From a phage: a DNA stretch of 64,000 nt. Within the stretch, counting starts at the first letter, position 1. The number at the start of each line of letters is the position of its first letter. Location of the stretch: the sequence record PV730302.1; one strand, 5' to 3'. Shown one piece after another: positions 1,715 to 58,010 of the stretch. Made by a program: the position numbers and the translations under genes. The notes below the pieces were generated by a model. That model had not been told where the DNA came from. It saw only the letters and a list, made by a program, of their open reading frames with translations, and ran no database searches.

Positions 1715-2034
1715 CTCTTAGATTTAATTTTATCCAGTTCTTCTTGTATTTGCATTGTAACACATTTTTCTACATGAAGCGCTAGCTCTTCTTTTCGGTC
1801 TTCGGAAGGTGTTCCGAAATCAACCGACACTTTTCCATCTTTCTCAATAACAATATTCATCACATAAACGATGTGAGCAGTGCCATCGGGTAAAGTAAGC
1901 ATAATTTCCTGCTTAACAGAACCCATTGACTTACGGATTATATCTAATGATTTCTCATAATAACGAGGGTCACTAGGACCCTCTTCGGTATCTTTAACAA
2001 AATTATCTAAATCAGATAAATCAGTCATGGTCAC
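1699..2034 (-). CDS. 40: small protein in the gene 40 position (gp40-like, head vertex assembly)
   Basis: 111-aa ORF between uvsX and 41 as in T4; assignment by synteny only; first ATG is at 2028, the track start at 2034 is GTG. Confidence 0.45.
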   Translation of the reverse strand: MTMTDLSDLDNFVKDTEEGPSDPRYYEKSLDIIRKSMGSVKQEIMLTLPDGTAHIVYVMNIVIEKDGKVSVDFGTPSEDRKEELALHVEKCVTMQIQEELDKIKSKRWWKW

Positions 2035-3202
2035 TCACAAAATTCATATTTTCTAAATCGTTTTCGATATCAGCAGCGCTTTGGGTATTTCCGCTTAATT
2101 TAACAGCAACGTTCTTAGAGACACGAGAGTTAATAAGGTCGTTCACTGCATCGTCAACTTCTTTAATAGAATTAATTGCACCAAGCTTATACTTATTCTC
2201 GATTGCTTCACGGAACGGAGCATGTTTAAACAGCGGTCCCCAGAACTCAACACAATCGGTAGCTTTAGCACGCCATGCTTTTTCTTCTTGAACCATTTCG
2301 CCTGTGGTTTCGTCAAGGAATGCACGATTATACCAACCAGCTTTAGGTTTCACAACAAAACCGATATCAGTAGCCATTTCAAGCAATCCACTGAATGGGT
2401 CAATGCCGCCTTCGAAGTTAACGGTGATAGGGAATGTTGATTTCTCTTTAACCGTACGAGATTTCTCTGCCTTCAGTGTGAAGTCGTAACCTGTGAGCTC
2501 GGTACCATCTTTAACCTGACGTTTAGAGATAAAGAACACGGTAGAAGCAGAGTACAGAATACCAGTACCACCACCCATAATCTCTTTAGGATACATTCCA
2601 CCAATTTCCATAGCCGTATGGTTGATTGCTACGCAAGGAATATCCTTGATGGTCAGATAAGGCGTTACGATACGGAACAGAGATTTCAGTGACTTAGCAC
2701 GAGTCATATCACCTACAACTTTCTCGTTCAAAGCATCTTCGGTTTCTTTCTTAGAAGCGGTGTTACCAATGGAGTCGATAAAGATAATAACCTTTTCGCC
2801 ACGAGTAATTTCTTCTAACTGGTTGGTCATATCAACCTTCAGCTGTTCGACTGACTGGATTGGTGTATGAACCACACGTTCCAAATCAACACCCATCGAA
2901 CGGAAATAAGATTCTGAAGCACCAAACTCAGAGTCATAGAACAAACAAATTGCGTCTGGATATTTCTTCATATATGCCGCAACCATGGTAAGTCCAAACA
3001 ACGTTTTAAAGTGTTTAGATGGAGCAGCAAAGATTGTCAAACCTGATTGTAAGCCTGCATTCAACGCACCACCTAATGCAATATTCAGCATAGGGATACG
3101 AGTAGGAACTTCGTCACGACCATTAAACAATTTAGATTTGGTCAGGTCGGCAGTCATTTTAGAAGTAGAAGCTTTAATCAAACGGGATTTTAAATCAGAC
3201 AT
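2021..3202 (-). CDS. uvsX: UvsX recombinase (RecA/Rad51 family)
   Basis: 393 aa; ATG at 3202; high similarity to recalled T4 UvsX over the whole length. Confidence 0.93.
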   Translation of the reverse strand: MSDLKSRLIKASTSKMTADLTKSKLFNGRDEVPTRIPMLNIALGGALNAGLQSGLTIFAAPSKHFKTLFGLTMVAAYMKKYPDAICLFYDSEFGASESYFRSMGVDLERVVHTPIQSVEQLKVDMTNQLEEITRGEKVIIFIDSIGNTASKKETEDALNEKVVGDMTRAKSLKSLFRIVTPYLTIKDIPCVAINHTAMEIGGMYPKEIMGGGTGILYSASTVFFISKRQVKDGTELTGYDFTLKAEKSRTVKEKSTFPITVNFEGGIDPFSGLLEMATDIGFVVKPKAGWYNRAFLDETTGEMVQEEKAWRAKATDCVEFWGPLFKHAPFREAIENKYKLGAINSIKEVDDAVNDLINSRVSKNVAVKLSGNTQSAADIENDLENMNFVSDHD

Positions 3203-3279
3203 TATATTTTTCCATAGGCATCATTATATTTTACTCACGTTTTAAGATAGGGTAATTATATCACTTCACATTTACAGCG

Positions 3280-3411
3280 TTATTTTATTCCTCGGTTGAT
3301 AGCCTTATCGACTATCTTCCGGACTTCTCGTTTCTCGAGCCAGCATAATAATAACAAGGCTCCGAAAGAGAATAATAACAAACCTATAAAAAGCAATAAA
3401 GGACCTAGCAT
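3280..3411 (-). CDS. small hydrophobic peptide (43 aa), putative
   Basis: ATG 3411-3409 with GAGGA SD 8 nt upstream; translation MLGPLLLFIGLLLFSFGALLLLCWLEKREVRKIVDKAINRGIK; below the ORF-track size cutoff. Confidence 0.3.
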   Translation of the reverse strand: MLGPLLLFIGLLLFSFGALLLLCWLEKREVRKIVDKAINRGIK

Positions 3412-4298
3412 ACTACGTCCTCATAACTTGGCATTTCGTGCTCAGAATGGATATGGGCGCCGAAATAAATGAATTCAGCTAGACCAGGATGGAATACTAA
3501 ACCTGGGTTCTCATGATAAATGATATGAGGTCTTGATTTCAGAATCTGATAATATTCAACCTTACTCGGTTTGAATTTAATAATCTCTACATCAGGACGA
3601 TAGTCTTCACGTTTAAACGAATCATTCGGGTCGGTTATATAAAGACGAGCACCTTCAGCCGCAGCTTGGTCTACAACTCTTTCGAATTGATAACACTTAT
3701 CCGAAATACGGAATGGGTGGAAAATACCATCAATTTTAATAGGCGCTAGGCCTTCAGAGTAACGCTCAATTACTGCCGGATTAATTACCTTTTGGTCTAC
3801 AAAAATCTTATCAGAGGACGCACCTCGTGACACCAGGACGTCTTTCTGACATTGATTCAGGACTGTGGTATAAATCGAACGTTCAACTGAGGACACGTCG
3901 GTATCAATAAACTCGTCGATATAATAACGAGGAACTTCAGGGTCCATTGTAATGTTAAAGTTGAATTGTACAGTCTGAGTGCCATCATAACCTGTGATAT
4001 CGGTTACCAATCCTGAGCAGTCATAGTATTCGATTAACGAATCAACAACGAACTCGTTTTCAGACCAAAAATGTTTACGAGTTTCATAAGCATTTTCTTT
4101 ATACCAAAGCGGTACAAAATTCAGTTCAGGAAATAATTCAATGCATTCTTTGATATCGCTCGAATTTCTAGGATAAGCCAGATAATCACCTGGGCAAGCA
4201 CGGTTTAAATGGAGTTGAAAATTACCGTCCTTAAGGACGGCATATTCACCTGTTTCGTAACTACGCATACTGAAAATAGGAACGATAAACAAACTCAT
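3405..4298 (-). CDS. hypothetical protein (297 aa) occupying the T4 beta-glucosyltransferase slot
   Basis: ATG 4298-4296 overlaps the gene 42 stop (ATGA coupling); no similarity to recalled T4 beta-gt; no obvious motifs. Confidence 0.6.
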   Translation of the reverse strand: MSLFIVPIFSMRSYETGEYAVLKDGNFQLHLNRACPGDYLAYPRNSSDIKECIELFPELNFVPLWYKENAYETRKHFWSENEFVVDSLIEYYDCSGLVTDITGYDGTQTVQFNFNITMDPEVPRYYIDEFIDTDVSSVERSIYTTVLNQCQKDVLVSRGASSDKIFVDQKVINPAVIERYSEGLAPIKIDGIFHPFRISDKCYQFERVVDQAAAEGARLYITDPNDSFKREDYRPDVEIIKFKPSKVEYYQILKSRPHIIYHENPGLVFHPGLAEFIYFGAHIHSEHEMPSYEDVVC

Positions 4299-4993
4299 TT
4301 CAGGAATCCTCGAACGTAGTCAAAATCACGTTCAAATACGTGTGCACTAACCATAGTATGGGAATACGTACCCAGACCAACACCACACTGTTCAGCAATA
4401 AAGGCCATCAGTTTACCCTGCAGATAGAAATCCAGCTGCATAACGATAGCACAGTTCTGTGAACGCATATGAGTATGTGCATACAGACGTCCATCACGAA
4501 TATAATATGTCACCGAATCGGTACATGGGTATTCTAAGGATTCGTCAGAATCAAGGAGGGCCTGGTCTTGTTCTTGGAGAATTTGGAACACAACTCGTCT
4601 TGAGTTAGGCTTCTCTTTAAGCTCTTTAAGTAGGGCCGGGAGTTGGGCCACAATTCGAGGTCCATAGAAAGTGTTGAAGTTTGCAGGCAATACGTCACTT
4701 TTCGGCTTATCAATGAACTTAGCAACATTAGGATATTCCTTAAATGCTTCAGCAGCGTCAGTACCACCAGAAATCATAAACTTCCAAAAGGATTCGGCAT
4801 AATCATAGTTGATACGATTAATACGAGGGTCGGTGAATTTATAGGTGCTTGCATCCAGTACTTCTACCGAAGCAGAACCAATTTCATAACAACGGCCGAT
4901 ACGAGAATCAACTGCAAACTGTGGAGCTTCCAGGATTTCTTCGTTCATTTGCTTAAACGCGTTTTCAAAACTAACAGCGGTAATGTGTTTCAT
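4295..4993 (-). CDS. 42: dCMP hydroxymethylase-like enzyme (thymidylate synthase superfamily, gp42 homolog)
   Basis: 232 aa; KPNSRRVVF, YPCTDSVTYYIRD and MRSQN...QLD align with T4 gp42 NPDSRRGIMIY, CTNTVQYLIRD and RSND...RND; the aspartate that T4 uses for cytosine specificity is conserved; SD AAGGTGA. Confidence 0.85.
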   Translation of the reverse strand: MKHITAVSFENAFKQMNEEILEAPQFAVDSRIGRCYEIGSASVEVLDASTYKFTDPRINRINYDYAESFWKFMISGGTDAAEAFKEYPNVAKFIDKPKSDVLPANFNTFYGPRIVAQLPALLKELKEKPNSRRVVFQILQEQDQALLDSDESLEYPCTDSVTYYIRDGRLYAHTHMRSQNCAIVMQLDFYLQGKLMAFIAEQCGVGLGTYSHTMVSAHVFERDFDYVRGFLK

Positions 4994-5526
4994 TTATTCA
5001 CCTTATTTTCAATATATTCATTCAGACGTTTTAATTCTACCATATCGACGTTAAGCAAGTTATTATGGCCGTCGTGATTTAAGATTTTAAACACGTTTTC
5101 AAAACATGTTTCATATTGCCGGATAGTTAGGTTGAACTCATCTTTGGTTAATTTAATAAGGTCATCTTCAAAGTCTTTATCTAATGGATTACGGGTTAAA
5201 ATAACCTCAATAATATTGAATTCTTTTTTGAAATCAATCCAATCTGCTAATTCTACATAAGGGTCCATTTCACCACGAAGGAATCCCGAGTAAACAATAT
5301 TACTAGGATACCCACGGTCTAAGATGTAGACAAAATTAGGGTCTAAAAACTTATACAACGTCTCGACTAAAGCCTTGTCATTATCAGTCCCTAATGAAAT
5401 GCATTTGCCGTTAATCTTTTTAGGGAAATCGATAAGACGATATTTCTTATCAGATAAAAGTGATTCAATTAAAGTAGACTTCCCGGAATTATCCGGGCCG
5501 TCGATAACAATGATTTTTGGTTTCAC
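4990..5526 (-). CDS. P-loop nucleotide kinase, thymidylate-kinase/deoxynucleoside-kinase-like
   Basis: 178 aa; Walker A IDGPDNSGKST and DRG(Y) motif; GTG start overlapping the HAD stop (GTGA); stop overlaps the gene 42 ATG (ATGA). Confidence 0.7.
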   Translation of the reverse strand: MKPKIIVIDGPDNSGKSTLIESLLSDKKYRLIDFPKKINGKCISLGTDNDKALVETLYKFLDPNFVYILDRGYPSNIVYSGFLRGEMDPYVELADWIDFKKEFNIIEVILTRNPLDKDFEDDLIKLTKDEFNLTIRQYETCFENVFKILNHDGHNNLLNVDMVELKRLNEYIENKVNK

Positions 5527-5882
5527 GGATGATATGCCTTATAGGTTTCAAGAGTTCCTTCACGAACCATTTCTTTAAAGTGGTCAGGACGGATTGCTCG
5601 GTCATCGATGATAAAAGTATAACTCGGCTTATGTGTAAGCAGATTGTGATATTTCAATCCAATCTTTTCAAGGTTCTTAACTAATGCAGGAACTACTTCA
5701 ACCAAGATTCGACCCGGGCCGCATGAAGTCATACCACGGGCAGTGAACAAGGTAATCTCGTACCCTTCATCATAAAGCTTATTAATCATGGACACCATTT
5801 CGGTGTCCGGTTTAAAGTTTTCGTAATCACGGTCATCTTGCCAGTGAGTAATGGTATTATCGATATCAAAACACAGATGCAT
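5523..5882 (-). CDS. HAD-superfamily phosphatase (small)
   Basis: Motif I DIDNT near the N-terminus; start taken at the ATG at 5882-5880 overlapping the upstream stop (TAATG) rather than the track start at 5897. Confidence 0.65.
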   Translation of the reverse strand: MHLCFDIDNTITHWQDDRDYENFKPDTEMVSMINKLYDEGYEITLFTARGMTSCGPGRILVEVVPALVKNLEKIGLKYHNLLTHKPSYTFIIDDRAIRPDHFKEMVREGTLETYKAYHP

Positions 5883-7555
5883 TAAATTTTCTTCCATTGT
5901 TTGTGGAGTTCGGTAGAACCTGTAGGTTTATATTTTACACCAGTTTCTTGGTCAAGCAAAACCCACTTATCAGGACAACGAGTGATAATTTGAGCCGTGA
6001 TAGGGTCACGAACTTCATCAACGAATTCACCTGTGATAAGCTTACGCTTACGAGGATGCCGCTTCAGCAGCACACTCAATTGATATAGACCGTTGTAATA
6101 AGCACCCAGAGCTTTCAGAGGGTTATTTTTAAAGTAACCTGCCAATGCCATCCAGATAACAGCAATCCAGAGCTTGTGCTTAAATGTACACATCGGAATA
6201 TCATCTAAAGGCATAACCTTTTCAATATCAACGAATACACGAGTTCCGTTACGAGTTAAGCCACCCCATAGAGGGTCAGAGTTAAATTTGTCATAACCAT
6301 CGATAGAATAAAGCACCTTAGCTTCATCATAAATCGCAGGGCCTTTAGAACTATTACCAAAATAACCACGTGGGTCGATGATTTTAATATTACCTTCGTC
6401 CGACAACATAATATTACTGTAGTGCGGGTCGCCATGAATAAGTTGGTACGGTTCTTTATGTTCAGACAGAATTTCTAAGGCGTGACGAAGAAGTTTTTCC
6501 GGGTCGCCTACCTTAAAGTCATTGACATGGGTAATGCCCTGTGGAGCAAAGCCTTCAATCAATCCAGCAATAGAAGCATTACGAATAAGGACCTTGTCCA
6601 ATACTTCTTTCTTAACATCAGAATACCATTGCTCATCAGATGGATTATCGATGGTTCCACCAAATGAACGTAATGCACTAATGACCTTATAAACCATGAG
6701 GACTTTAGTTTCTTTAGACATAAACCGGTAGGCATCTGCCATGGTGCGTCCAAAGATACGTTCCATTTTAATGAATTCACCTGGAGCAAAGTCTACAATG
6801 CTCGGAACGAATTCAGAATCAATAGAATTGTACCAATTGATTTCTTTAGATTGGATTTCTTTACCTAATTCGTTAGTTGGTACTTTAATAGCCAGATTCT
6901 CAGTGAACTCTAATTTATTAAATTCACGGTTAATTTCAGAATCTTCATGGGCCTTAGCCAGTTTCAATTTGTCACCGACATCAACCACAAAGTCCAGCTT
7001 ACGTTCAGTCAAATGGACCATCGAATCCAGGTTGTCGGCAAGGTCTTCGCCATAATACAGACCGTTAAAACCTGTCCAATTGGCTACTTGATACAAACCA
7101 ACCACACCGCCACCAGTACCAATTTCACGCAAGTATGGTTCTTCAAATGTAAAACGACAGTCAGTCCCATAGGTATAACAGTAGTCGTTATCCCACTCAA
7201 CCTTATAACCTTCAGGAATAATATCACACCAGTTAAACAAGACATTGTGCCCGATGATATCTTCAGCAATGCAATCGATAGCATGAGCTGAACCATTGGC
7301 CACATCTACGTTACGAATAGTGAATTTAGGCTTATCACTATTAATCATATTAATGGATTTAATATAGCCTTTAACGAGGTCGTTAAATTTGCTGTGAATA
7401 ACCAGAATAATTTCATCCGATTGGTTACTATACAAATCGTACAAATGTTTTAATACGGTATGTTGTTTGTAGTTAACCAGTACCTTCGGGATTTCGTTGG
7501 TAATTGGATACAACCGTGAGCCAAGACCCGCGCCTAAAATAACAACCTTTTTCAT
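5882..7555 (-). CDS. bifunctional sugar-1-phosphate nucleotidyltransferase (N-terminal, RmlA-like) / APH-choline-kinase-like phosphotransferase (C-terminal)
   Basis: N-terminal VVILGAGLGSRLYPITNEIPKVL is a classic NTP-transferase signature; C-terminal HGDPHYSN and IIDPRG resemble the APH/ChoK catalytic loop; start at ATG 7555 with GAGGAA SD. Confidence 0.75.
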   Translation of the reverse strand: MKKVVILGAGLGSRLYPITNEIPKVLVNYKQHTVLKHLYDLYSNQSDEIILVIHSKFNDLVKGYIKSINMINSDKPKFTIRNVDVANGSAHAIDCIAEDIIGHNVLFNWCDIIPEGYKVEWDNDYCYTYGTDCRFTFEEPYLREIGTGGGVVGLYQVANWTGFNGLYYGEDLADNLDSMVHLTERKLDFVVDVGDKLKLAKAHEDSEINREFNKLEFTENLAIKVPTNELGKEIQSKEINWYNSIDSEFVPSIVDFAPGEFIKMERIFGRTMADAYRFMSKETKVLMVYKVISALRSFGGTIDNPSDEQWYSDVKKEVLDKVLIRNASIAGLIEGFAPQGITHVNDFKVGDPEKLLRHALEILSEHKEPYQLIHGDPHYSNIMLSDEGNIKIIDPRGYFGNSSKGPAIYDEAKVLYSIDGYDKFNSDPLWGGLTRNGTRVFVDIEKVMPLDDIPMCTFKHKLWIAVIWMALAGYFKNNPLKALGAYYNGLYQLSVLLKRHPRKRKLITGEFVDEVRDPITAQIITRCPDKWVLLDQETGVKYKPTGSTELHKQWKKI

Positions 7556-7615
7556 TATCTGTTCCTCAAGTGAATGTAGGTACATTATACACTATTTTTA
7601 ATAAATTGGTATTGC

Positions 7616-8116
7616 TTAAATCTTATCTTTACCGATTTCAATACACTGTTCTATTGCCGCCGGTACTTTGGTCTTGAGCTTATCGATTTGTTTCTTATAA
7701 TCACGAGCTTTACCGAAGCTCTCAGTTTCGAGCATTTCGTAATAACGAGCTTCATGGATAGAAATCTGTAGATTGATATGGTTTACGCACATCGCATACA
7801 GTTTCTGCTTTTTGTACAAATCATCTTGGCGCTTCATTTCTGCCTGGTGTTTGGCTAGTACCGCTTCACGCTTGGACTCTTGTTCACGTTGGAATTCGAT
7901 TTCTCGTTGAGCATATTTTGCACAGTTATTACCACATTGATTATTAGCTCGGGTATACACAAGTCCAGAACCAGCACGGAATTTCATTTCGCCATCGAAT
8001 TGTTTCTGTTCAGCCGCGATACGAGCTTTACCAACTTCATCAGCCGAAACTGCATCACCATATTGGACCGCGCAACCTGATAGGAGCATACTCATTGCGA
8101 TAATTAACTTTTTCAT
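7616..8116 (-). CDS. putative lipoprotein (166 aa), function unknown
   Basis: Signal peptide with lipobox MLLSGC; ATG 8116 with GAGGA SD; charged coiled-coil-like body. Confidence 0.65.
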   Translation of the reverse strand: MKKLIIAMSMLLSGCAVQYGDAVSADEVGKARIAAEQKQFDGEMKFRAGSGLVYTRANNQCGNNCAKYAQREIEFQREQESKREAVLAKHQAEMKRQDDLYKKQKLYAMCVNHINLQISIHEARYYEMLETESFGKARDYKKQIDKLKTKVPAAIEQCIEIGKDKI

Positions 8117-8123
8117 AATATCC

Positions 8124-8261
8124 TCAATTAAAACAGTTATACTTAATTTGTGCTATAAGAATAATCCATCCGATGATTAGTGTCGGAATCATTGGCGGGA
8201 TTGCCACTGCCCAATAAATGGTAAAGGCAGCCATTATAAGAAATAAAACAATTATTTTCAT
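8124..8261 (-). CDS. small membrane peptide (45 aa), putative (imm.1 position)
   Basis: ATG 8261-8259 overlaps the imm stop (ATGA); translation MKIIVLFLIMAAFTIYWAVAIPPMIPTLIIGWIILIAQIKYNCFN. Confidence 0.4.
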   Translation of the reverse strand: MKIIVLFLIMAAFTIYWAVAIPPMIPTLIIGWIILIAQIKYNCFN

Positions 8262-8494
8262 TGTTTAACAATAATGATTTGTGCGTTTGATTTACGTTCA
8301 GCGACGATAGCCCAGATTAAAGCCACTACCCAACCAATCATCGTCCAGCCTAACAGGAGATTAAGGAAGAAAATTCCTACATTACTACGAGTGCCTCGCA
8401 GAAGAGCCAGAATCCATGGTAAAAAGTAACCGATGAACATAATAACCAGAGAACCGAATCCTAAAACACCAGCACTAACGATTAAAGCTTCCAT
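8258..8494 (-). CDS. imm: superinfection immunity protein Imm-like small membrane protein
   Basis: 78 aa with two predicted TM helices; position between 43 and 42 as in T4; SD GAGGAAA; early promoter upstream. Confidence 0.7.
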   Translation of the reverse strand: MEALIVSAGVLGFGSLVIMFIGYFLPWILALLRGTRSNVGIFFLNLLLGWTMIGWVVALIWAIVAERKSNAQIIIVKQ

Positions 8495-8497
8495 TGT

Positions 8498-8554
8498 AAT
8501 TTCCTCATGTAGTTGATAGGAAGGATACTACCACGTTCCTTGTGGTATGTAAAC
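8498..8554 (-). promoter_or_regulatory. early-promoter-like element upstream of imm
   Basis: Minus-strand GTTTACATACCACAAGGAACGTGGTAGTATCCTTCCTATCAACTAC; -35 GTTTAC, 17-bp spacer, -10 TAGTAT. Confidence 0.55.
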
Positions 8555-8556
8555 AC

Positions 8557-11268
8557 TTAAAAGTCGAACATGTCAAATAATGTTGCTTTTTTCTCGTAGT
8601 CGATTTTAGCAGACTCGGTAAAACCGGTCAGAGGTTTGATAAAGGTCTTTTGGAACAGTACGTTGTAGTCCATCCAACGGAGGACTTGGTCACGAATCTG
8701 AACCGGAAGTTCAATACCTGACGGCCATGCCATACAAGCTTCACCAAACGGGTTGCCTTCTTTAAGTGGCAGTACATATACCTTTTCACCATCAACGATA
8801 CGAGGCATAGTCAAATCACCTGCAGAAGCACGCATGTAAGCTAAGCAACCTTTGATGTGGTATGGACATTTAGAACCCGGGAATCCACCTTCATTATATT
8901 TCTCGATGTTGTTAGCACTGGATACTGCTGCAATGCTTACATAGTTTAGTTCGTTAAATTCCTTATTAAACTGTTTGAAATATTCTTGCAAAGAGGCCTC
9001 GCCTTCCTGAAGCATACGACGGATACATTCTTTCAGAGCTTTCTGAACTGCTTTAGGTGTACTTGATTTCTGGGTTTCGAGACCCATGATTTTCAAGTGC
9101 GGTTCGGCATAACGAGTACCTTCCATGTCCCAAACGTTCAGTGCATAACGTTTCTTGCCTGTCCAGAATCCACCAAGACCTTTAGAACCAAGTGGAGGAC
9201 CTGCGATAGCTTCTCGGTCCATGAACATCAAGTGTTGTTTGTTGTTCATGTACTCGCACATCTCACGGAAGCCTGCATCAATAGCTGGTTCCATACGTTC
9301 ACGTGCAAATTTATCTAAGAAGTCGACCCAATGGTTAGTATCACGGAATTTATCTTCGCCTACTTTATTGATGATTGCATCTGCCTTAACATAAATGGAG
9401 TCAGTATCACCATAGAGCACGAACTTCTGATTTTCAGTCTTACACACGCTATTCAGATATTCGTTAACCTTACGTTCAATCCATTGGAGGGCCATTTGAC
9501 CAAACAGTGTGATTGCAGTTGCGTTCCTGAGGTCGTAATAACGGAACCATACGTTACCAAGTGCACCATAAAGGGAGTTGATAAGCAACTTACGGTTAAT
9601 CTGAGCAGTCATACCTGCAACTTCGGTACGTTCAGCTCTGAACAACATTTCTCTTAAAGAAGGTGCTGACAGCGTTTTAATCTTGGCTTTGATTTCGTCA
9701 GAGAAGTCAAAACGATAATCGATATCCAGTGGACTATCAGCCGAGAGATTAGGATTTTCTAATGCTTCTTTAATTAACTCACCATTACGTTGAGCTGCAA
9801 GCATATAACCTTTATGTTCTTTACGTTGTAAGAACACCTTAGTGATTTCTGTAGGAATCACACCATCGCGGTCTTTATAGTACATCATGCCGTTAGGAGA
9901 GCAACTGTAGACGTCGCTAGGACGCGGAGCTGTTCCGGCAATATATTCATGTATCGGTGCGTTAGCGAATGTCCCTGCGATGGTCTCTGGGCTTATATTC
10001 ACTTGTCGAATGATACTCGGGTACAGAGATGTAAGGTCGAAACTCATTACGTATTTGTAAGCGTTAGGAATCGGTTCCTTAACGAAAGCGCCAGGATAAG
10101 GTTGGACCACGTGCGAACGAGCTTGTGGAATTACCTTGCCTTGCTCTTTAAGGCTATTAAAGATAATAGCGTCCCAAGTCTTAATTGGACTAAACACCGA
10201 CTGAATCTGCATCTTAGCATAATAACCCATGTCCAAACTCAGAAGAATGAACTGGCGTTTCATATCAATCTGCACTACACGATATACGTCGATAATGTTA
10301 TAGGAAATATATCGTTGGTGGTTCGTCTCACGTAACTTGGAGATTGGACCATCGTATTTCAACTTACCTACTTTCAATTCATATTCAGAAACATAATCCA
10401 GAGAATAAGAAGGCTGGTTGGTGAAGCTGAATTTTTTATAGAGGTCGATATAATCCAGAACAGAGATGCCGAACAAAGTAATGATTTCACGAGCACCGTA
10501 CATGTTCTCGATAACTTTAACACGAGTTTTACGATGTGGGCTTAATCGCTTAGCAGTGTTCTCACCGAACAGATTTTTCAGACGGTTATAAACGTACGGC
10601 ACGTCAAATGATTCAACGTTCCATCCAGTCAAAATCACAGGAGTTTTCTGTTGCCAGAAATTCAAGTACTCAAGCATCATTTCTTCTTCAGAATTAAATG
10701 GAAGATAAACGATTTTGTCAATGATTTCCTGTGGAACTTCGTCACCACCTTCGTCTTGGAGTTTCTCAGCGATTTTAATCGACCACTCTTCAACAGTACC
10801 ATAAGGCGAAACTAAAAGGTCGAATACATAGAATTTATCGTCAATCGAGTCGTAGTGGGTAATGGCATCGATAGGATGTTTAGCCTGAGCTGGTTCAGGG
10901 AATCCATCAGGAGATGTTACCTCGATGTCGAAGTTAGCAATACGAATCTTAGAAGAATCATATTTGATTTCTTTACGATAGGTATCAGACAAATAGGCTA
11001 ATTTATAGTCGTCCATACCCAGGGCTTCGAGGCCCATATCATCCATACGTTTCATCCATTGGGATGCATCACGCATAGAGTCGAATTCTTTCTTAACACA
11101 ACCCTTACCATAGATATCAATGTATTTTACGGCTTGCTCTGGATTAGCATGCATAAACATTGTAGGCTTGTATGGAACTTCACGACTACGTTCGTTACCA
11201 TTTTTATCGATGTAACGTTCGAGAATATTATCACCGATTTGTTCGACTGTCAAATAGAATTCTTGCAT
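8557..11268 (-). CDS. 43: DNA polymerase gp43 (family B)
   Basis: Near-colinear with recalled T4 and especially RB69 gp43; start taken at in-frame ATG 11268 (MQEFYLTVEQ, matching T4 MKEFYISIET) with AGGAAA SD, not the longer track ORF to 11328. Confidence 0.96.
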   Translation of the reverse strand: MQEFYLTVEQIGDNILERYIDKNGNERSREVPYKPTMFMHANPEQAVKYIDIYGKGCVKKEFDSMRDASQWMKRMDDMGLEALGMDDYKLAYLSDTYRKEIKYDSSKIRIANFDIEVTSPDGFPEPAQAKHPIDAITHYDSIDDKFYVFDLLVSPYGTVEEWSIKIAEKLQDEGGDEVPQEIIDKIVYLPFNSEEEMMLEYLNFWQQKTPVILTGWNVESFDVPYVYNRLKNLFGENTAKRLSPHRKTRVKVIENMYGAREIITLFGISVLDYIDLYKKFSFTNQPSYSLDYVSEYELKVGKLKYDGPISKLRETNHQRYISYNIIDVYRVVQIDMKRQFILLSLDMGYYAKMQIQSVFSPIKTWDAIIFNSLKEQGKVIPQARSHVVQPYPGAFVKEPIPNAYKYVMSFDLTSLYPSIIRQVNISPETIAGTFANAPIHEYIAGTAPRPSDVYSCSPNGMMYYKDRDGVIPTEITKVFLQRKEHKGYMLAAQRNGELIKEALENPNLSADSPLDIDYRFDFSDEIKAKIKTLSAPSLREMLFRAERTEVAGMTAQINRKLLINSLYGALGNVWFRYYDLRNATAITLFGQMALQWIERKVNEYLNSVCKTENQKFVLYGDTDSIYVKADAIINKVGEDKFRDTNHWVDFLDKFARERMEPAIDAGFREMCEYMNNKQHLMFMDREAIAGPPLGSKGLGGFWTGKKRYALNVWDMEGTRYAEPHLKIMGLETQKSSTPKAVQKALKECIRRMLQEGEASLQEYFKQFNKEFNELNYVSIAAVSSANNIEKYNEGGFPGSKCPYHIKGCLAYMRASAGDLTMPRIVDGEKVYVLPLKEGNPFGEACMAWPSGIELPVQIRDQVLRWMDYNVLFQKTFIKPLTGFTESAKIDYEKKATLFDMFDF

Positions 11269-11321
11269 TTCATTTCCTTTATAGACGAGTGATTGTCTTT
11301 TGTTTGTTGATGAATTATTAT

Positions 11322-11348
11322 ACTCCAAAAAGGGACCGAAGTCCCTTT
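11322..11348 (-). terminator. terminator-like hairpin upstream of gene 43
   Basis: AAAGGGAC-TTCG-GTCCCTTT followed by a 4-nt T-run on the minus strand. Confidence 0.45.
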
Positions 11349-31414: not shown

Positions 31415-32425
31415 TTATCGATAATAAGAGTTGTGGTTGTCAAGGTATACCTCTTCGACGAACTTGTCCCGGAACTTCATGTCCACCTTATCAGGCATAC
31501 CGTTCTTGGCTGCCCAGATGGCATTGGTTTCGACTTCATCTACAATAGCTTCAAGTTCAGCCTGCACATCTTTAAAAGCATGTAATCCTTGTTTGATTTC
31601 AAGAATGAATGGAGCGGTACGTAAAGGGTATTTGAGATCGCCAGTTTGATAGATTTCCTTCAACTGGTATCCAGCACGATAAGCATGACTCAGCGCTTTC
31701 CAATCGATACCTTCATTGGCTTCAGCCTTACGAGCACGTTCACCATATTCAGCATCAAGCTTATTCAGAGATTGCTTGAGCTCGATTAAAGACAAAGTGG
31801 TTTGGTACTTACGTCCGAGAACAGTATAGAACGTTTGAGGACCTGTTTTCTCATGATTATGGAATACCCATTCACAGAACTCGTTTTCAGGGAGTCGATG
31901 TTTAATATCTTCTACCTTAGTACGACGTTGTTTAGTCGAACCATCTTCTTGGTAATCAATCCACTGTTCAGGAATCTGGTTGACTATTGCCAATACACCA
32001 CGCAGAGCAGCCAGACGAGAACCTTTAACACCATATTTAGAAGCTTGCTTACGGACGTACCCTAAATAGGCTTTCATGTTGGTTGTATAGAACCGAGAAC
32101 GATTGTCTTGGATAAATTTCCATACATCAGGTAAATCAGATTTAACCACCAGTTCAGGTGGAGTGTGGAGCATATCCAGAGCAACGGTTTCGCCTTCAGC
32201 CGCCAGTTTAAAGAAATATTTCAGGCTATAAAGCTCGTGGTCAACATCATCTTTAGTGTTTTTGGAAGCAGTGTTATTCGTATTCAGGTTGGTATGGTTC
32301 ATAGCCGTACCTAACAGAATATCACGCGGATGTGGAACAAAGATTTCTTTAAAATCAACATCAGATTCTGGAGTACTTGTTCCATAAAGGTGGCTACCGA
32401 AGTAGCCTTTCATAACTGTTCTCAT
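31415..32425 (-). CDS. Pol-beta-superfamily nucleotidyltransferase-like protein with long helical C-terminal domain
   Basis: GSHLYGTSTPESDVDF matches the GS-x(9-13)-DxD minimal-NTase motif; 336 aa; ATG overlaps the upstream stop (ATGA); SD GAGGA. Confidence 0.55.
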   Translation of the reverse strand: MRTVMKGYFGSHLYGTSTPESDVDFKEIFVPHPRDILLGTAMNHTNLNTNNTASKNTKDDVDHELYSLKYFFKLAAEGETVALDMLHTPPELVVKSDLPDVWKFIQDNRSRFYTTNMKAYLGYVRKQASKYGVKGSRLAALRGVLAIVNQIPEQWIDYQEDGSTKQRRTKVEDIKHRLPENEFCEWVFHNHEKTGPQTFYTVLGRKYQTTLSLIELKQSLNKLDAEYGERARKAEANEGIDWKALSHAYRAGYQLKEIYQTGDLKYPLRTAPFILEIKQGLHAFKDVQAELEAIVDEVETNAIWAAKNGMPDKVDMKFRDKFVEEVYLDNHNSYYR

Positions 32426-53975: not shown

Positions 53976-54653
<678 letters not shown>

Positions 54654-54661
<8 letters not shown>

Positions 54662-55415
54662 TTTTATTTCCTAATAATTTATCAATAGTAGTGTATAGTT
54701 CAGAAAGAGTGCCGTTATTTTCAACAACAACGTCACCAGGTAAAATTGGTAGACCCGCTTCAGTGATGTGCGAGTCTTGTACTTGACCGGTTTCAGAGCG
54801 AACTACATGAATAATCGTAGCACCCATCGCTCTGAGCGAATCAATTTCGTGTGTTTGACGAACATCAGGTACGACATAGTATTTCGCGTCAGAGTATATT
54901 TTATCAAAATAGTCTAAAGCGAACAACTTAACCCAATACATCTTATCAAATTGGTTAACAATAATATCAGTCCCAAGGGTCTGCATGAGACGACGTACTG
55001 ACCAATTGTTATTTTTATTTATTACTTCAAACAGTTGGTCTTTTGTTTCTTCAGACAGATACTGGACTGGGGTAAGACCATAATGATATGCGGTACGAAC
55101 ATCCATTCCTGGAATAGGAAGGATATTATTCAGTTTGACAATAGCATTTTCAAAGATATCAATAACGTCATATGGTTTTAAAGGAATGATTTCTTCACGG
55201 TCGTAACCGATACCTTCAAAACAGTTGAAATCCAGTTTAGGCATATAACTACGGTCGAATACAGGGTCATCAGAGATGTATTCATAGGCTTCAGCCAGAT
55301 ACTTTTTAATAGGACCTGCGAGCTGAAATTTTACCGAATCCATATTTTCGATTACATAGTTAGCAACGGTATCCTTACCGCTACGTTTGATTCCTACAAT
55401 TGATATTAGTTTCAT
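54654..55415 (-). CDS. 1: deoxynucleoside monophosphate kinase gp1
   Basis: 253 aa; P-loop GIKRSGKDT and WSVRRLMQTLGTDIIVNQFDKMYWVKLFALDY blocks match recalled T4 gp1. Confidence 0.93.
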
Positions 55416-56087: not shown

Positions 56088-56915
56088 TTATGAATTCTTC
56101 CATACTTTCTGAGCTGAATAACGCTTGCCTTTAGACATGAACTGTTGGAGAGGCATCATGACCACATTAGCCCAATCAGCAGGTTTTATCTCTACTAAAG
56201 GGCCCTTGATATTTCCAGGGATATAAGCCTTAATCATAACGTCTGCGCCGGCGAATCCTTTTACCTTACTCCAATCGATTTTTAATTTAGTCGAGTTAGT
56301 AATGGTAGGCGTACTCGCGTATTGCTTCAGCAATTCTTCCAGAAATTGTTGACGTGCTTTAGGTGGGATATAGTGTAAGTTCAGCCCGTACATTAAATTA
56401 TGCTTACCTAACCCAAGATAAATGATTAAAGGATATTTGTCCCAATACGGTAGAGTATCCTTGTGCTTGGCGTCATAGATATAAGCATAAAGCTTACCAG
56501 GAGATGGTTTAGATACCTGGTGTCCACGAATTCCTTTCTTTAATGTTTCTGTAAACCATTTAGCTGATTTATTGTTTACAGCGGCGCCTTCGTTAGCAAT
56601 CTTATCACGAATACTCTTTCTAAAACTATTCACCAAAATTAATTGACGTTCGGCTTTGGTTAATTTATTGCCAGGTTTCTTCTGAAGTTTTTCAACCTGT
56701 ACAGCAGTTTTAATTCGACTCGAGTATCGAGACATCGCAGATGTAAAGCTAGAATACTTGATGCCTTTATCTTCAGCGAATTTCTTAGCCGAGACACCTT
56801 TAGCCTTGGCATTGGCATATTCAACGCCTAAAGTTATCCATTGTTGTTCTGAACGGGTGGGCTTGGAACCCTTTGTGGTTTCAGTAGCCTCATTGATGTA
56901 GGAAAATATACTCAT
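56088..56915 (-). CDS. 2: DNA end-protector protein gp2-like
   Basis: Basic 275-aa protein between 3 and 4; start at ATG 56915 overlapping the gene 4 stop (ATGA). Confidence 0.7.
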
Positions 56916-57361
56916 CCTTTCCATCCTAATTTTTTCAGTGAATGTTCGGTAATCAATCTAAAGGTGATACCCATTTTATCTGCTGTAGCTTTAGCTGCTT
57001 TCCACTTATCAGTATTAACAGACCAAGTATAGTGTTCGTTGATATATCTCTTTTTAGCAGCCGTAGTCATTTTAACAGGCACCGCAGGAGCATGGGTTTC
57101 TTTAAAAGGTTTGACTTCAAAAAAGAATTGTTGGCCCGTATCAAATTTAACCCAGAAGTCCATAAAATATCGTCTTTTCTTTCCTTCGGCATTGCAAAAG
57201 TAAGGAATGACCACCTCTTCTGAATTCCACTGGACTACATTAGGATGGTTGTCAAGCCAACGCATAAACCATGCTTCCCAAGAGGAACGATATTGGATTT
57301 TCTTCCAGTCACCTTTATATTTTTGTAAGTTTGTAGGTTTAAATTTCCCTGAGTAAGCCAT
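56912..57361 (-). CDS. 4: head completion protein gp4
   Basis: Start at ATG 57361 (MAYSGKF, matching T4 gp4) with AAGGAGG SD and an upstream late-promoter motif. Confidence 0.8.
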
Positions 57362-57372
57362 AGTTGCCTCCT

Positions 57373-57380
57373 TATAAATA
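57373..57380 (+). promoter_or_regulatory. late promoter TATAAATA for gene 53
   Basis: Exact TATAAATA on the plus strand 28 nt upstream of the gene 53 ATG; divergent from the gene 4 promoter. Confidence 0.65.
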
Positions 57381-57387
57381 TTAATAT

Positions 57388-57395
57388 TATTTATA
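57388..57395 (-). promoter_or_regulatory. late promoter TATAAATA for gene 4
   Basis: Exact TATAAATA on the minus strand 27 nt upstream of the gene 4 ATG. Confidence 0.65.
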
Positions 57396-57407
57396 CTCGG
57401 AGGCCCT

Positions 57408-58010
57408 ATGCTCTTCTCATTTTTCGATCCCATCGATTACGAATCAAAAACAGTCAAGCCGGATTCGGGCTCATTAACAAATGCCGATGTACTGAGCGTG
57501 CCGATGACTGATATATTTAGAAATTATAAAGAATATTTTGATAAAGTGGCTAAAAACTATACACTAAAGACTTATTATATCAACGGGGCCCCTCGTCCAG
57601 AAGAATTGGCCAATCAACTTTACGGTAACGTTCAGTTATACTGGGTTTTATTGATGTGCAATAACGTATATGACCCATATTACGGCTGGATTACAGGCCA
57701 AGAAGTCGCATATCAAGCAGCAATCCAAAGATATTCTACTGCAGGTGGCAATCAAGTTCTTTATCATGTTAATGAAAAGGGTGAGAAATTCTGGAATCTT
57801 GTTAATACTCCAGAAAACCCATATACTTGGTATGATAAAGGTGATACAGAAAAACGTTATCCTCAATATGAGGGCCCTTTGGCTGCAGTAGATATTTACG
57901 AGGATGCTATTCGTAAAAATGAATATAAGCGCGAAATAAAGATTGTAGACCCTAATGATATTGAGTCCTTTATTTCTGCCCTTATTCGCGAAATGGAGAA
58001 AGCCCTCTAA
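57408..58010 (+). CDS. 53: baseplate wedge protein gp53
   Basis: 200 aa; SD GGAGG; T4 gene order 4|53-5 with divergent late promoters. Confidence 0.85.
   Translation: MLFSFFDPIDYESKTVKPDSGSLTNADVLSVPMTDIFRNYKEYFDKVAKNYTLKTYYINGAPRPEELANQLYGNVQLYWVLLMCNNVYDPYYGWITGQEVAYQAAIQRYSTAGGNQVLYHVNEKGEKFWNLVNTPENPYTWYDKGDTEKRYPQYEGPLAAVDIYEDAIRKNEYKREIKIVDPNDIESFISALIREMEKAL

Follow-up and report, generated by a model that had tools for sequence, protein, structure and literature searches.

A GT-B protein encoded beside a 5-hydroxy-dCMP synthase-type gene is a likely first arabinosyltransferase of a JS98-like phage

Previous studies have shown that arabinosyl-5-hydroxycytosine shields the DNA of T4-like phages against several types of CRISPR-Cas as well as against DNA glycosylases and restriction enzymes (PMC13216743, PMC13326640). 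The modification of phage RB69 was first reported as arabinosyl-5-hydroxymethylcytosine (arabinosyl-hmC; PMC6024577) and has since been corrected, the arabinose being ether-linked to 5-hydroxycytosine. RB69 gp48 has been shown to produce 5-hydroxy-dCMP (5hodCMP) with the use of O2 and a flavin, phage HY126 AfhE and AfhF are reported to convert arabinose-5-phosphate to UDP-arabinofuranose (UDP-Araf), and the base-proximal arabinose is reported to be alpha-linked (PMC13326640). RB69 gp46:47 and DLP3 gp79 have been modelled, with PDB entry 6kih as the top match, and proposed as "arabinosyltransferase 1", and the Dhakaviruses are listed among the genera with a syntenic cluster (Lee et al., Nucleic Acids Research (NAR) 2026, PMC13326640). 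Here, we analyze a 64,000-nucleotide stretch of phage record PV730302.1 (the window), which carries a 297-amino-acid open reading frame (ORF) in such a cluster. We conclude, with a probability of roughly 0.72, that its product is a GT-B enzyme that acts as the first (base-proximal) arabinosyltransferase, moving arabinofuranose from UDP-Araf to 5-hydroxycytosine, most likely on DNA. The finding is real, but the pathway was already described in 2025–2026.

The only profile matched by the 297-aa protein is PHROG 3891 ("unknown function"; E 1.9e-158 over residues 1–296). Neither this protein nor any one of 91 members of its family matched an entry of Pfam (at E<=1) or NCBIfam, and a sequence search of the PDB was empty both with the single protein and with the 91-member family profile. 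In sequence it does not resemble T4 beta-gt (hhalign probability 0.2%; nothing by BLASTP), and RB69 gp3 has no detectable relation to the family profile (hhalign probability 0.2%). An earlier note on this DNA, made from the sequence alone, had likewise seen no likeness to beta-gt and no recognisable motif, and had proposed remote-homology and fold comparisons. Those at the level of fold were informative. An AlphaFold2 model built on a 91-sequence alignment (predicted local distance difference test score 95.7, predicted template-modelling score 0.90) has two Rossmann-like domains with a cleft between them, as in GT-B enzymes, and Foldseek searches of the PDB and of viral models concordantly gave GT-B/GT4 matches. 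The top structural neighbour is 6kih, a sucrose-phosphate synthase, and among viral models the homolog from phage KARL-1 has a TM-score of 0.95 to ours. No nucleotidyltransferase, nuclease or structural-protein fold was seen among the Foldseek matches. Like the bacterial retaining GT4 enzymes (6kih, BshA, PglA, PimA, MshA), with which it aligns over 244–267 residues at 3.0–3.2 Å, the protein is, as modelled, a compact GT-B glycosyltransferase that is GT4-like and of retaining type; it differs from them in its shorter C-terminal domain, its unrecognisable EX7E motif and an identity of only 8–10%. Retaining transfer is the most likely mechanism, and the alpha linkage reported for the base-proximal sugar is consistent with a GT4-like enzyme of this type.

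Conservation within the family marks candidate catalytic or binding residues in both domains: R12, D24-G-N26 and R74 in the N-terminal domain, and R197, D200, Y203, T222-D-P-N225, K246 and H270-P-G in the C-terminal one. This bears on whether the protein is catalytic at all. GenBank labels the homologs in Serratia phage LC53 (L010:5001-5912) and several Klebsiella phages "putative RNA polymerase binding protein", and a non-catalytic role of that kind would account for the label. We find the idea hardly credible, given that the label comes without evidence, that the GT-B fold is confident, that invariant polar residues (R12, D24, N26, R74, R197, D200, K246, H270) cluster in both domains, and that the protein is encoded in linkage with nucleotide-sugar genes. 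The label, and that of "cysteine desulfurase" on one Kosakonia phage homolog, are probably propagated mis-annotations.

The ORF is no orphan, as had been supposed: besides its membership in PHROG 3891, it has homologs in 351 phage records (tblastn), which form 117 clusters at 90% identity, and 240 relatives at 50% identity emerged when 1.84 billion representatives were searched with a profile. By tblastn, identity is 100% in Escherichia phage LQ5, 97–99% in the Dhakavirus members JS98 and Bp7, about 67% in Mosigvirus (RB69-like) and about 49% in phages of Acinetobacter; the source is, on these matches, most likely a JS98-like T4-type phage of the genus Dhakavirus. RB69 is matched in two frames, ORF047c (residues 1–179, 69%) and ORF046c (184–296, 65%), which reflects a known frameshift error of the RB69 record. 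JS98 gp038 is annotated "RB69 orf047c-like", and TH1_063 of Shewanella phage Thanatos is 51% identical (E 9e-97). Homology is full-length, as judged from PHROG 3891, RB69, TH1_063 and the KARL-1 model, and the sequence comparisons identify the ORF as the ortholog of RB69 ORF047c+046c (gp46:47), JS98 gp038, the DLP3 gp79 type and Thanatos TH1_063. Like RB69 gp46:47 and DLP3 gp79, the window protein has the same length, sits in the same place beside a 5hodCMP synthase and has 6kih as its closest structural neighbour; its identity to DLP1-like phages is about 49%. The earlier note had proposed a novel DNA-modifying transferase. The transferase stands, and orthology to RB69 gp46:47, the proposed arabinosyltransferase 1, now gives its kind; the novelty does not, because both the family and its cluster in Dhakavirus had been published before (PMC13326640).

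The start codon of the ORF and the stop codon of a 232-aa ThyA-family ORF upstream of it share an ATGA overlap (4 nt), with GAGGA 8 nt 5′ of the ATG. The gene lies between this ThyA-family gene and uvsX (2021..3202), with a 43-aa hydrophobic ORF also downstream. Since gene order in T4 is uvsX-segA-b-gt-42-imm-43, the ORF occupies the beta-gt slot; overlap and slot had both been remarked on before, and both are confirmed in the sequence. The earlier note took the upstream gene for gene 42, encoding a hydroxymethylase, and proposed the ORF as a candidate for a novel transferase acting on hmC. The slot shared with T4 beta-gt, the membership of the upstream gene in the thymidylate synthase family and the original report of arabinosyl-hmC in RB69 (PMC6024577) would all agree with this. 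The upstream protein itself does not. It matches PDB entries 9iqu, 9iqc and 9ir2 with E 1.5e-125, versus 4.7e-6 for T4 gp42 (1b49), and is about 80% identical to the solved protein of phage HY126 (9iqu) and 78.8% identical to RB69 gp48. These three entries presumably represent the hydroxylase from HY126 described by He et al. 2026. In alignment with E. coli ThyA, Cys146 is kept while D169N and N177D are substituted; position 169 is Asp in both ThyA and T4 gp42, and Asn in the window enzyme. D169N is a signature of 5-hydroxy-dCMP synthases (PMC13326640). Judged by its sequence, then, the upstream gene is of the 5-hydroxy-dCMP synthase type (a flavin/O2-dependent dCMP C5-hydroxylase) and no ortholog of the gp42 hydroxymethylase, which argues for 5-hydroxycytosine, not hmC, as the acceptor base and for arabinose as the sugar. 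Given also that arabinosyl-hmC in RB69, whose gp48 makes 5hodCMP, has been corrected to arabinosyl-5-hydroxycytosine, we regard transfer to hmC as very improbable. Neither the homology nor the gp42-supplied acceptor of the T4 beta-glucosyltransferase family is found here. Hydroxylation in this phage would be O2-dependent.

The transferase gene is the last of five overlapping genes, following those for an AfhE-like kinase/uridylyltransferase, an AfhF-like phosphatase, a Tmk-like kinase and the 5-hydroxy-dCMP synthase (Table 1); beyond the cassette lie three small genes and then DNA polymerase. The AfhE-like product matches Pfam NTP_transferase (2.6e-08) and APH (9e-06) as well as PHROG 4098 (E 1e-267), and carries a GAGLGSRL motif in its N-terminal nucleotidyltransferase domain. 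Its true start is probably the second Met, MKKVVILGAG (~7555), because the JS98 ortholog gp042, labelled RB69 orf052c-like, is annotated as shorter (557 aa). The AfhF-like protein also matches the NCBIfam capsule biosynthesis phosphatase model (E 1.6e-14, below the cut-off), and by homology is predicted to convert arabinofuranose-1,5-bisphosphate to arabinofuranose-1-phosphate. The co-occurrence of these two genes matches the UDP-Araf pathway, and bears out the suggestion of the earlier note that the upstream cassette makes the sugar donor. A promoter and terminator scan of 3000..8600 gave sites no more numerous than in shuffled sequence, and we draw no regulatory conclusion from it.

Table 1. 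Genes of the arabinosylation locus and other features of the window.
Feature	Position	Strand	Basis
Hydrophobic, single-pass-membrane-like peptide (MLGPLLLFIGLLLFSFGALLLLCW...), 43 aa	3280..3411	minus	sequence
Candidate transferase ORF, 297 aa, ATG to stop	3405..4298	minus	window sequence
ThyA-family enzyme, 5-hydroxy-dCMP synthase type, 232 aa	4295..4993	minus	homology, D169N
Tmk-like P-loop nucleotide kinase, RB69 gp45 homolog, 178 aa	4990..5526	minus	PHROG 761 E 4.7e-40; 36.7% identity to RB69 gp45
HAD-family sugar-phosphate phosphatase, RB69 gp51 / HY126 AfhF homolog, 124 aa	5523..5897	minus	PHROG 1238 E 5e-41; 62% identity to RB69 gp51
Sugar-1-phosphate nucleotidyltransferase (N-terminal) and APH-like kinase (C-terminal), RB69 gp52:53 / HY126 AfhE homolog, 567 aa	5882..7585	minus	Pfam, PHROG 4098
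ORF, 166 aa	7616..8116	minus	
DNA polymerase ORF, as listed	8557..11328	minus	
RlaP nucleotidyltransferase-family protein	31415..32425	minus	Pfam E 1.2e-10
Acb1 anti-CBASS homolog	53976..54431	minus	Pfam E 1.2e-58
gp1-type deoxynucleotide monophosphate kinase	54654..55415	minus	Pfam DNMK E 7.1e-90
TnsA-like endonuclease N-terminal domain protein	56912..57433	minus	Pfam E 3.3e-23

The Thanatos ortholog raises the question of whether the protein makes the activated sugar instead of transferring it. TH1_063 resembles the window ORF in its length (300 aa) and in lying next to a ThyA homolog, TH1_062, and its phage, reported to be mono-pentosylated, has no other protein of GT fold. It differs in having been reported as a UDP-xylose pyrophosphorylase in vitro: the purified His-tagged protein, 51% identical to ours (E 9e-97), gave UDP-xylose by liquid chromatography–tandem mass spectrometry (PMC12838424). 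The GT-B fold does not support such an activity, and the 297-aa protein has neither the fold nor the N-terminal GxGxR(L) motif of sugar-1-phosphate nucleotidyltransferases. The cluster already contains a nucleotidyltransferase domain with a GxGxR motif, and its homolog in HY126, AfhE, reportedly makes UDP-arabinose; with no homologs of gp3, alpha-gt or beta-gt in the window, and none of gp3 in Dhakavirus, a pyrophosphorylase here would leave the phage without a transferase candidate. It is also possible that a contaminating host activity of GalU type contributed in the Thanatos assay. We consider a UDP-pentose pyrophosphorylase quite improbable for the window protein.

Compared with RB69, the JS98-type cluster is reduced. 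It lacks the arabinose-5-phosphate isomerase gp55, the pair formed by U32-family gp50 and gp49, and the gp3-type second transferase; homologs of all of these are absent from the window, as are those of T4 alpha-gt and beta-gt. RB69 gp3 is essentially identical to the solved protein 9iqz (E 5e-249), and matches to it were confined to Mosigvirus (at least 95% identity) and phages of Acinetobacter; Dhakavirus genomes had none. The gp3-type enzyme, including the HY126 glycosyltransferase "Aat" (PDB 9iqz, 9ir0), differs from the window protein in length (366 versus 297 aa) and charge (near-neutral versus strongly acidic), and it adds the second sugar. The 297-aa protein is the only glycosyltransferase candidate found, in sequence searches that covered only homologs of gp3, alpha-gt and beta-gt, with no scan of the other ORFs by fold. 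Because there is no gp3-type second transferase, the DNA of this phage is predicted to be mono-arabinosylated. For arabinose-5-phosphate, the phage would rely on host KdsD/GutQ. Gene order differs as well, the kinase gene lying upstream of the hydroxylase in the JS98 type and downstream of the glycosyltransferase in the RB69 type.

In the pathway that we favor, the ThyA-like enzyme would hydroxylate dCMP at C5, and the 5hodCMP so formed would be phosphorylated and then polymerised into phage DNA. The cassette would convert arabinose-5-phosphate from the host to UDP-Araf, and the 297-aa transferase would place the first arabinofuranose of this donor on the 5-OH of 5-hydroxycytosine, most likely in newly replicated DNA, yielding alpha-linked 5-arabinosyl-hydroxycytosine. 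Several points weigh against this assignment. In the literature covered, outside of which lie He et al. 2026 (Nat Chem Biol) and Mahler et al. 2025 (Cell Host Microbe), no activity has been demonstrated for any family member, nor did we find a DNA analysis of a Dhakavirus. Individual DLP3 glycosyltransferases showed no activity on 5-hydroxycytosine DNA (5hoC-DNA) with UDP-Araf or UDP-arabinopyranose (UDP-Arap) (PMC13326640), and TH1_063, which formed UDP-xylose from UTP and xylose-1-phosphate, gave no glycosylation of plasmid DNA (PMC12838424). No sequence-level link to glycosyltransferase families was found (Pfam, hhalign versus T4 beta-gt and RB69 gp3), and none of the 91 members matches Pfam Glycos_transf_1 or Glyco_trans_4, nor is EX7E evident in the family; in place of the EX7E of canonical GT4 enzymes, the family is invariant for H270-P-G, R197 and K246. 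Finally, the protein is very acidic, with an isoelectric point (pI) of 4.83 and a net charge of -18.7 (family median pI 5.2), as compared to pI values of 9.05 for T4 beta-GT, 6.11 for alpha-GT and 6.33 for RB69 gp3.

Some of these points can be turned in favor of a different acceptor. That the transferase is DNA-directed, as the earlier note had it, is an assumption: the experiments of Lee et al. do not distinguish a mononucleotide from DNA as the acceptor of the first sugar (PMC13326640). If enzyme and donor are the same and the acceptor is free 5hodCMP, the Tmk-like kinase would be dedicated to arabinosyl-5hodCMP, perhaps no substrate for the gp1-type kinase, and the polymerase would use a pre-glycosylated dCTP analogue. 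The acidity of the protein is in line with this, as are the negative tests on 5hoC-DNA, after which the authors leave the question open (PMC13326640). So is the arrangement of the genes. Those for the ThyA-like enzyme, the glycosyltransferase and the Tmk-like kinase overlap in the window and are linked across very distant phages, adjoining even in contigs of jumbo-phage size (356–383 kb) at only 30–40% identity. Among metagenomic relatives, PHROG 3891 is followed by a PHROG 761 kinase within one protein in five (P0215, P0222, P0230, P0241, P0247), and in P0214 a P-loop/Tmk-like kinase is N-terminal to the transferase. The link between the window kinase and the fusion extensions came from PHROG profiles; single-sequence phmmer did not give it. 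The window already encodes a gp1-type deoxynucleotide monophosphate kinase, whose RB69 homolog gp159 phosphorylates 5hodCMP (PMC13326640), so that the Tmk-like kinase is additional and its role unexplained. This extra kinase keeps glycosylation at the nucleotide level alive as an explanation.

We nevertheless judge it unlikely. To our knowledge, those glycosyltransferases of phage DNA that have been characterised (T4 alpha/beta-GT) all act after replication. DLP3 gp76 and gp77 act on DNA, and the hydroxylase together with a deoxynucleotide monophosphate kinase put 5-hydroxy-dC into DNA in E. coli without any glycosyltransferase (PMC13326640). Fusion and adjacency imply a shared pathway, not a shared substrate, and as such they also count for the pathway that we favor; the transferase is also found fused to a sugar phosphatase: seven relatives (P0131, P0143, P0146, P0154, P0162, P0177, P0211) carry an N-terminal KdsC-like HAD phosphatase with motifs DFDGIF, TGDS and GDDxYD. 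We infer that DNA, not the nucleotide, is where the first arabinose would be added.

In this JS98-like coliphage the pathway has a minimal form with a single transferase, which makes the window a clean setting for proving what the first transferase does and for settling whether its acceptor is DNA or a nucleotide, a question that the transferase-kinase fusions sharpen. Should the nucleotide prove to be the acceptor, the assembly of a glycosylated base by a phage at the level of the nucleotide would be without precedent. Knowing which phages make arabinosyl-5-hydroxycytosine is also useful for choosing and engineering phages for therapy.

Related loci include genes that may concern the hydroxylation step. 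In the 383-kb contig GCA_040384225.1, of jumbo-phage size, a Flavodoxin_2 gene (FMN-dependent reductase-like; L005:4426-4932) belongs to the block of ThyA-like, transferase and kinase genes, two genes upstream of the ThyA-like one, and its product may supply reduced flavin to the hydroxylase. A Peptidase_U32-family gene is present in clusters of the RB69 type (L001:4493-5662, RB69 gp50) and the LC53 type (L010:2796-4306, Serratia phage LC53), and also at L006:7049-8125; its neighbour in LC53 encodes a type II chorismate mutase. One distant contig has the order Tmk-like, GT1, U32, GT47-like, the ThyA-like gene being absent within the 13 kb covered. The U32 proteins TrhP, RlhA and UbiUV carry out O2-independent, prephenate-dependent hydroxylations (PMC6599085, PMC10990095), and the pair of U32 protein and chorismate mutase could give anaerobic access to 5-hydroxycytosine, alongside the ThyA-like enzyme with its need for O2. 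The window has none of these genes, and neither U32 nor prephenate is mentioned in the NAR 2026 paper (PMC13326640).

Several minor features of the window were also noted. The ATG of the 43-aa ORF overlaps the final codons of the transferase gene, and the stretch that contains it (3203..3420) has 94.5% DNA identity with JS98, where the ORF is unannotated. An apparent antisense match of 98% between this ORF and RB69 proved to be an artefact, the real match being the syntenic intergenic region of JS98. JS98 orf43 is the counterpart of the 166-aa ORF that separates the arabinosylation cassette from imm; the 166-aa product shows a signal of lipoprotein type (MKKLIIAMSMLLSGC...) and is assigned to no family. 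For DNA polymerase, the listed TTG start is probably too far upstream, and an internal start at MQEFY would be the more natural one. Farther away, the window encodes homologs of the anti-CBASS protein Acb1, of a TnsA-like endonuclease (N-terminal domain) and of the RlaP nucleotidyltransferase family (Table 1).
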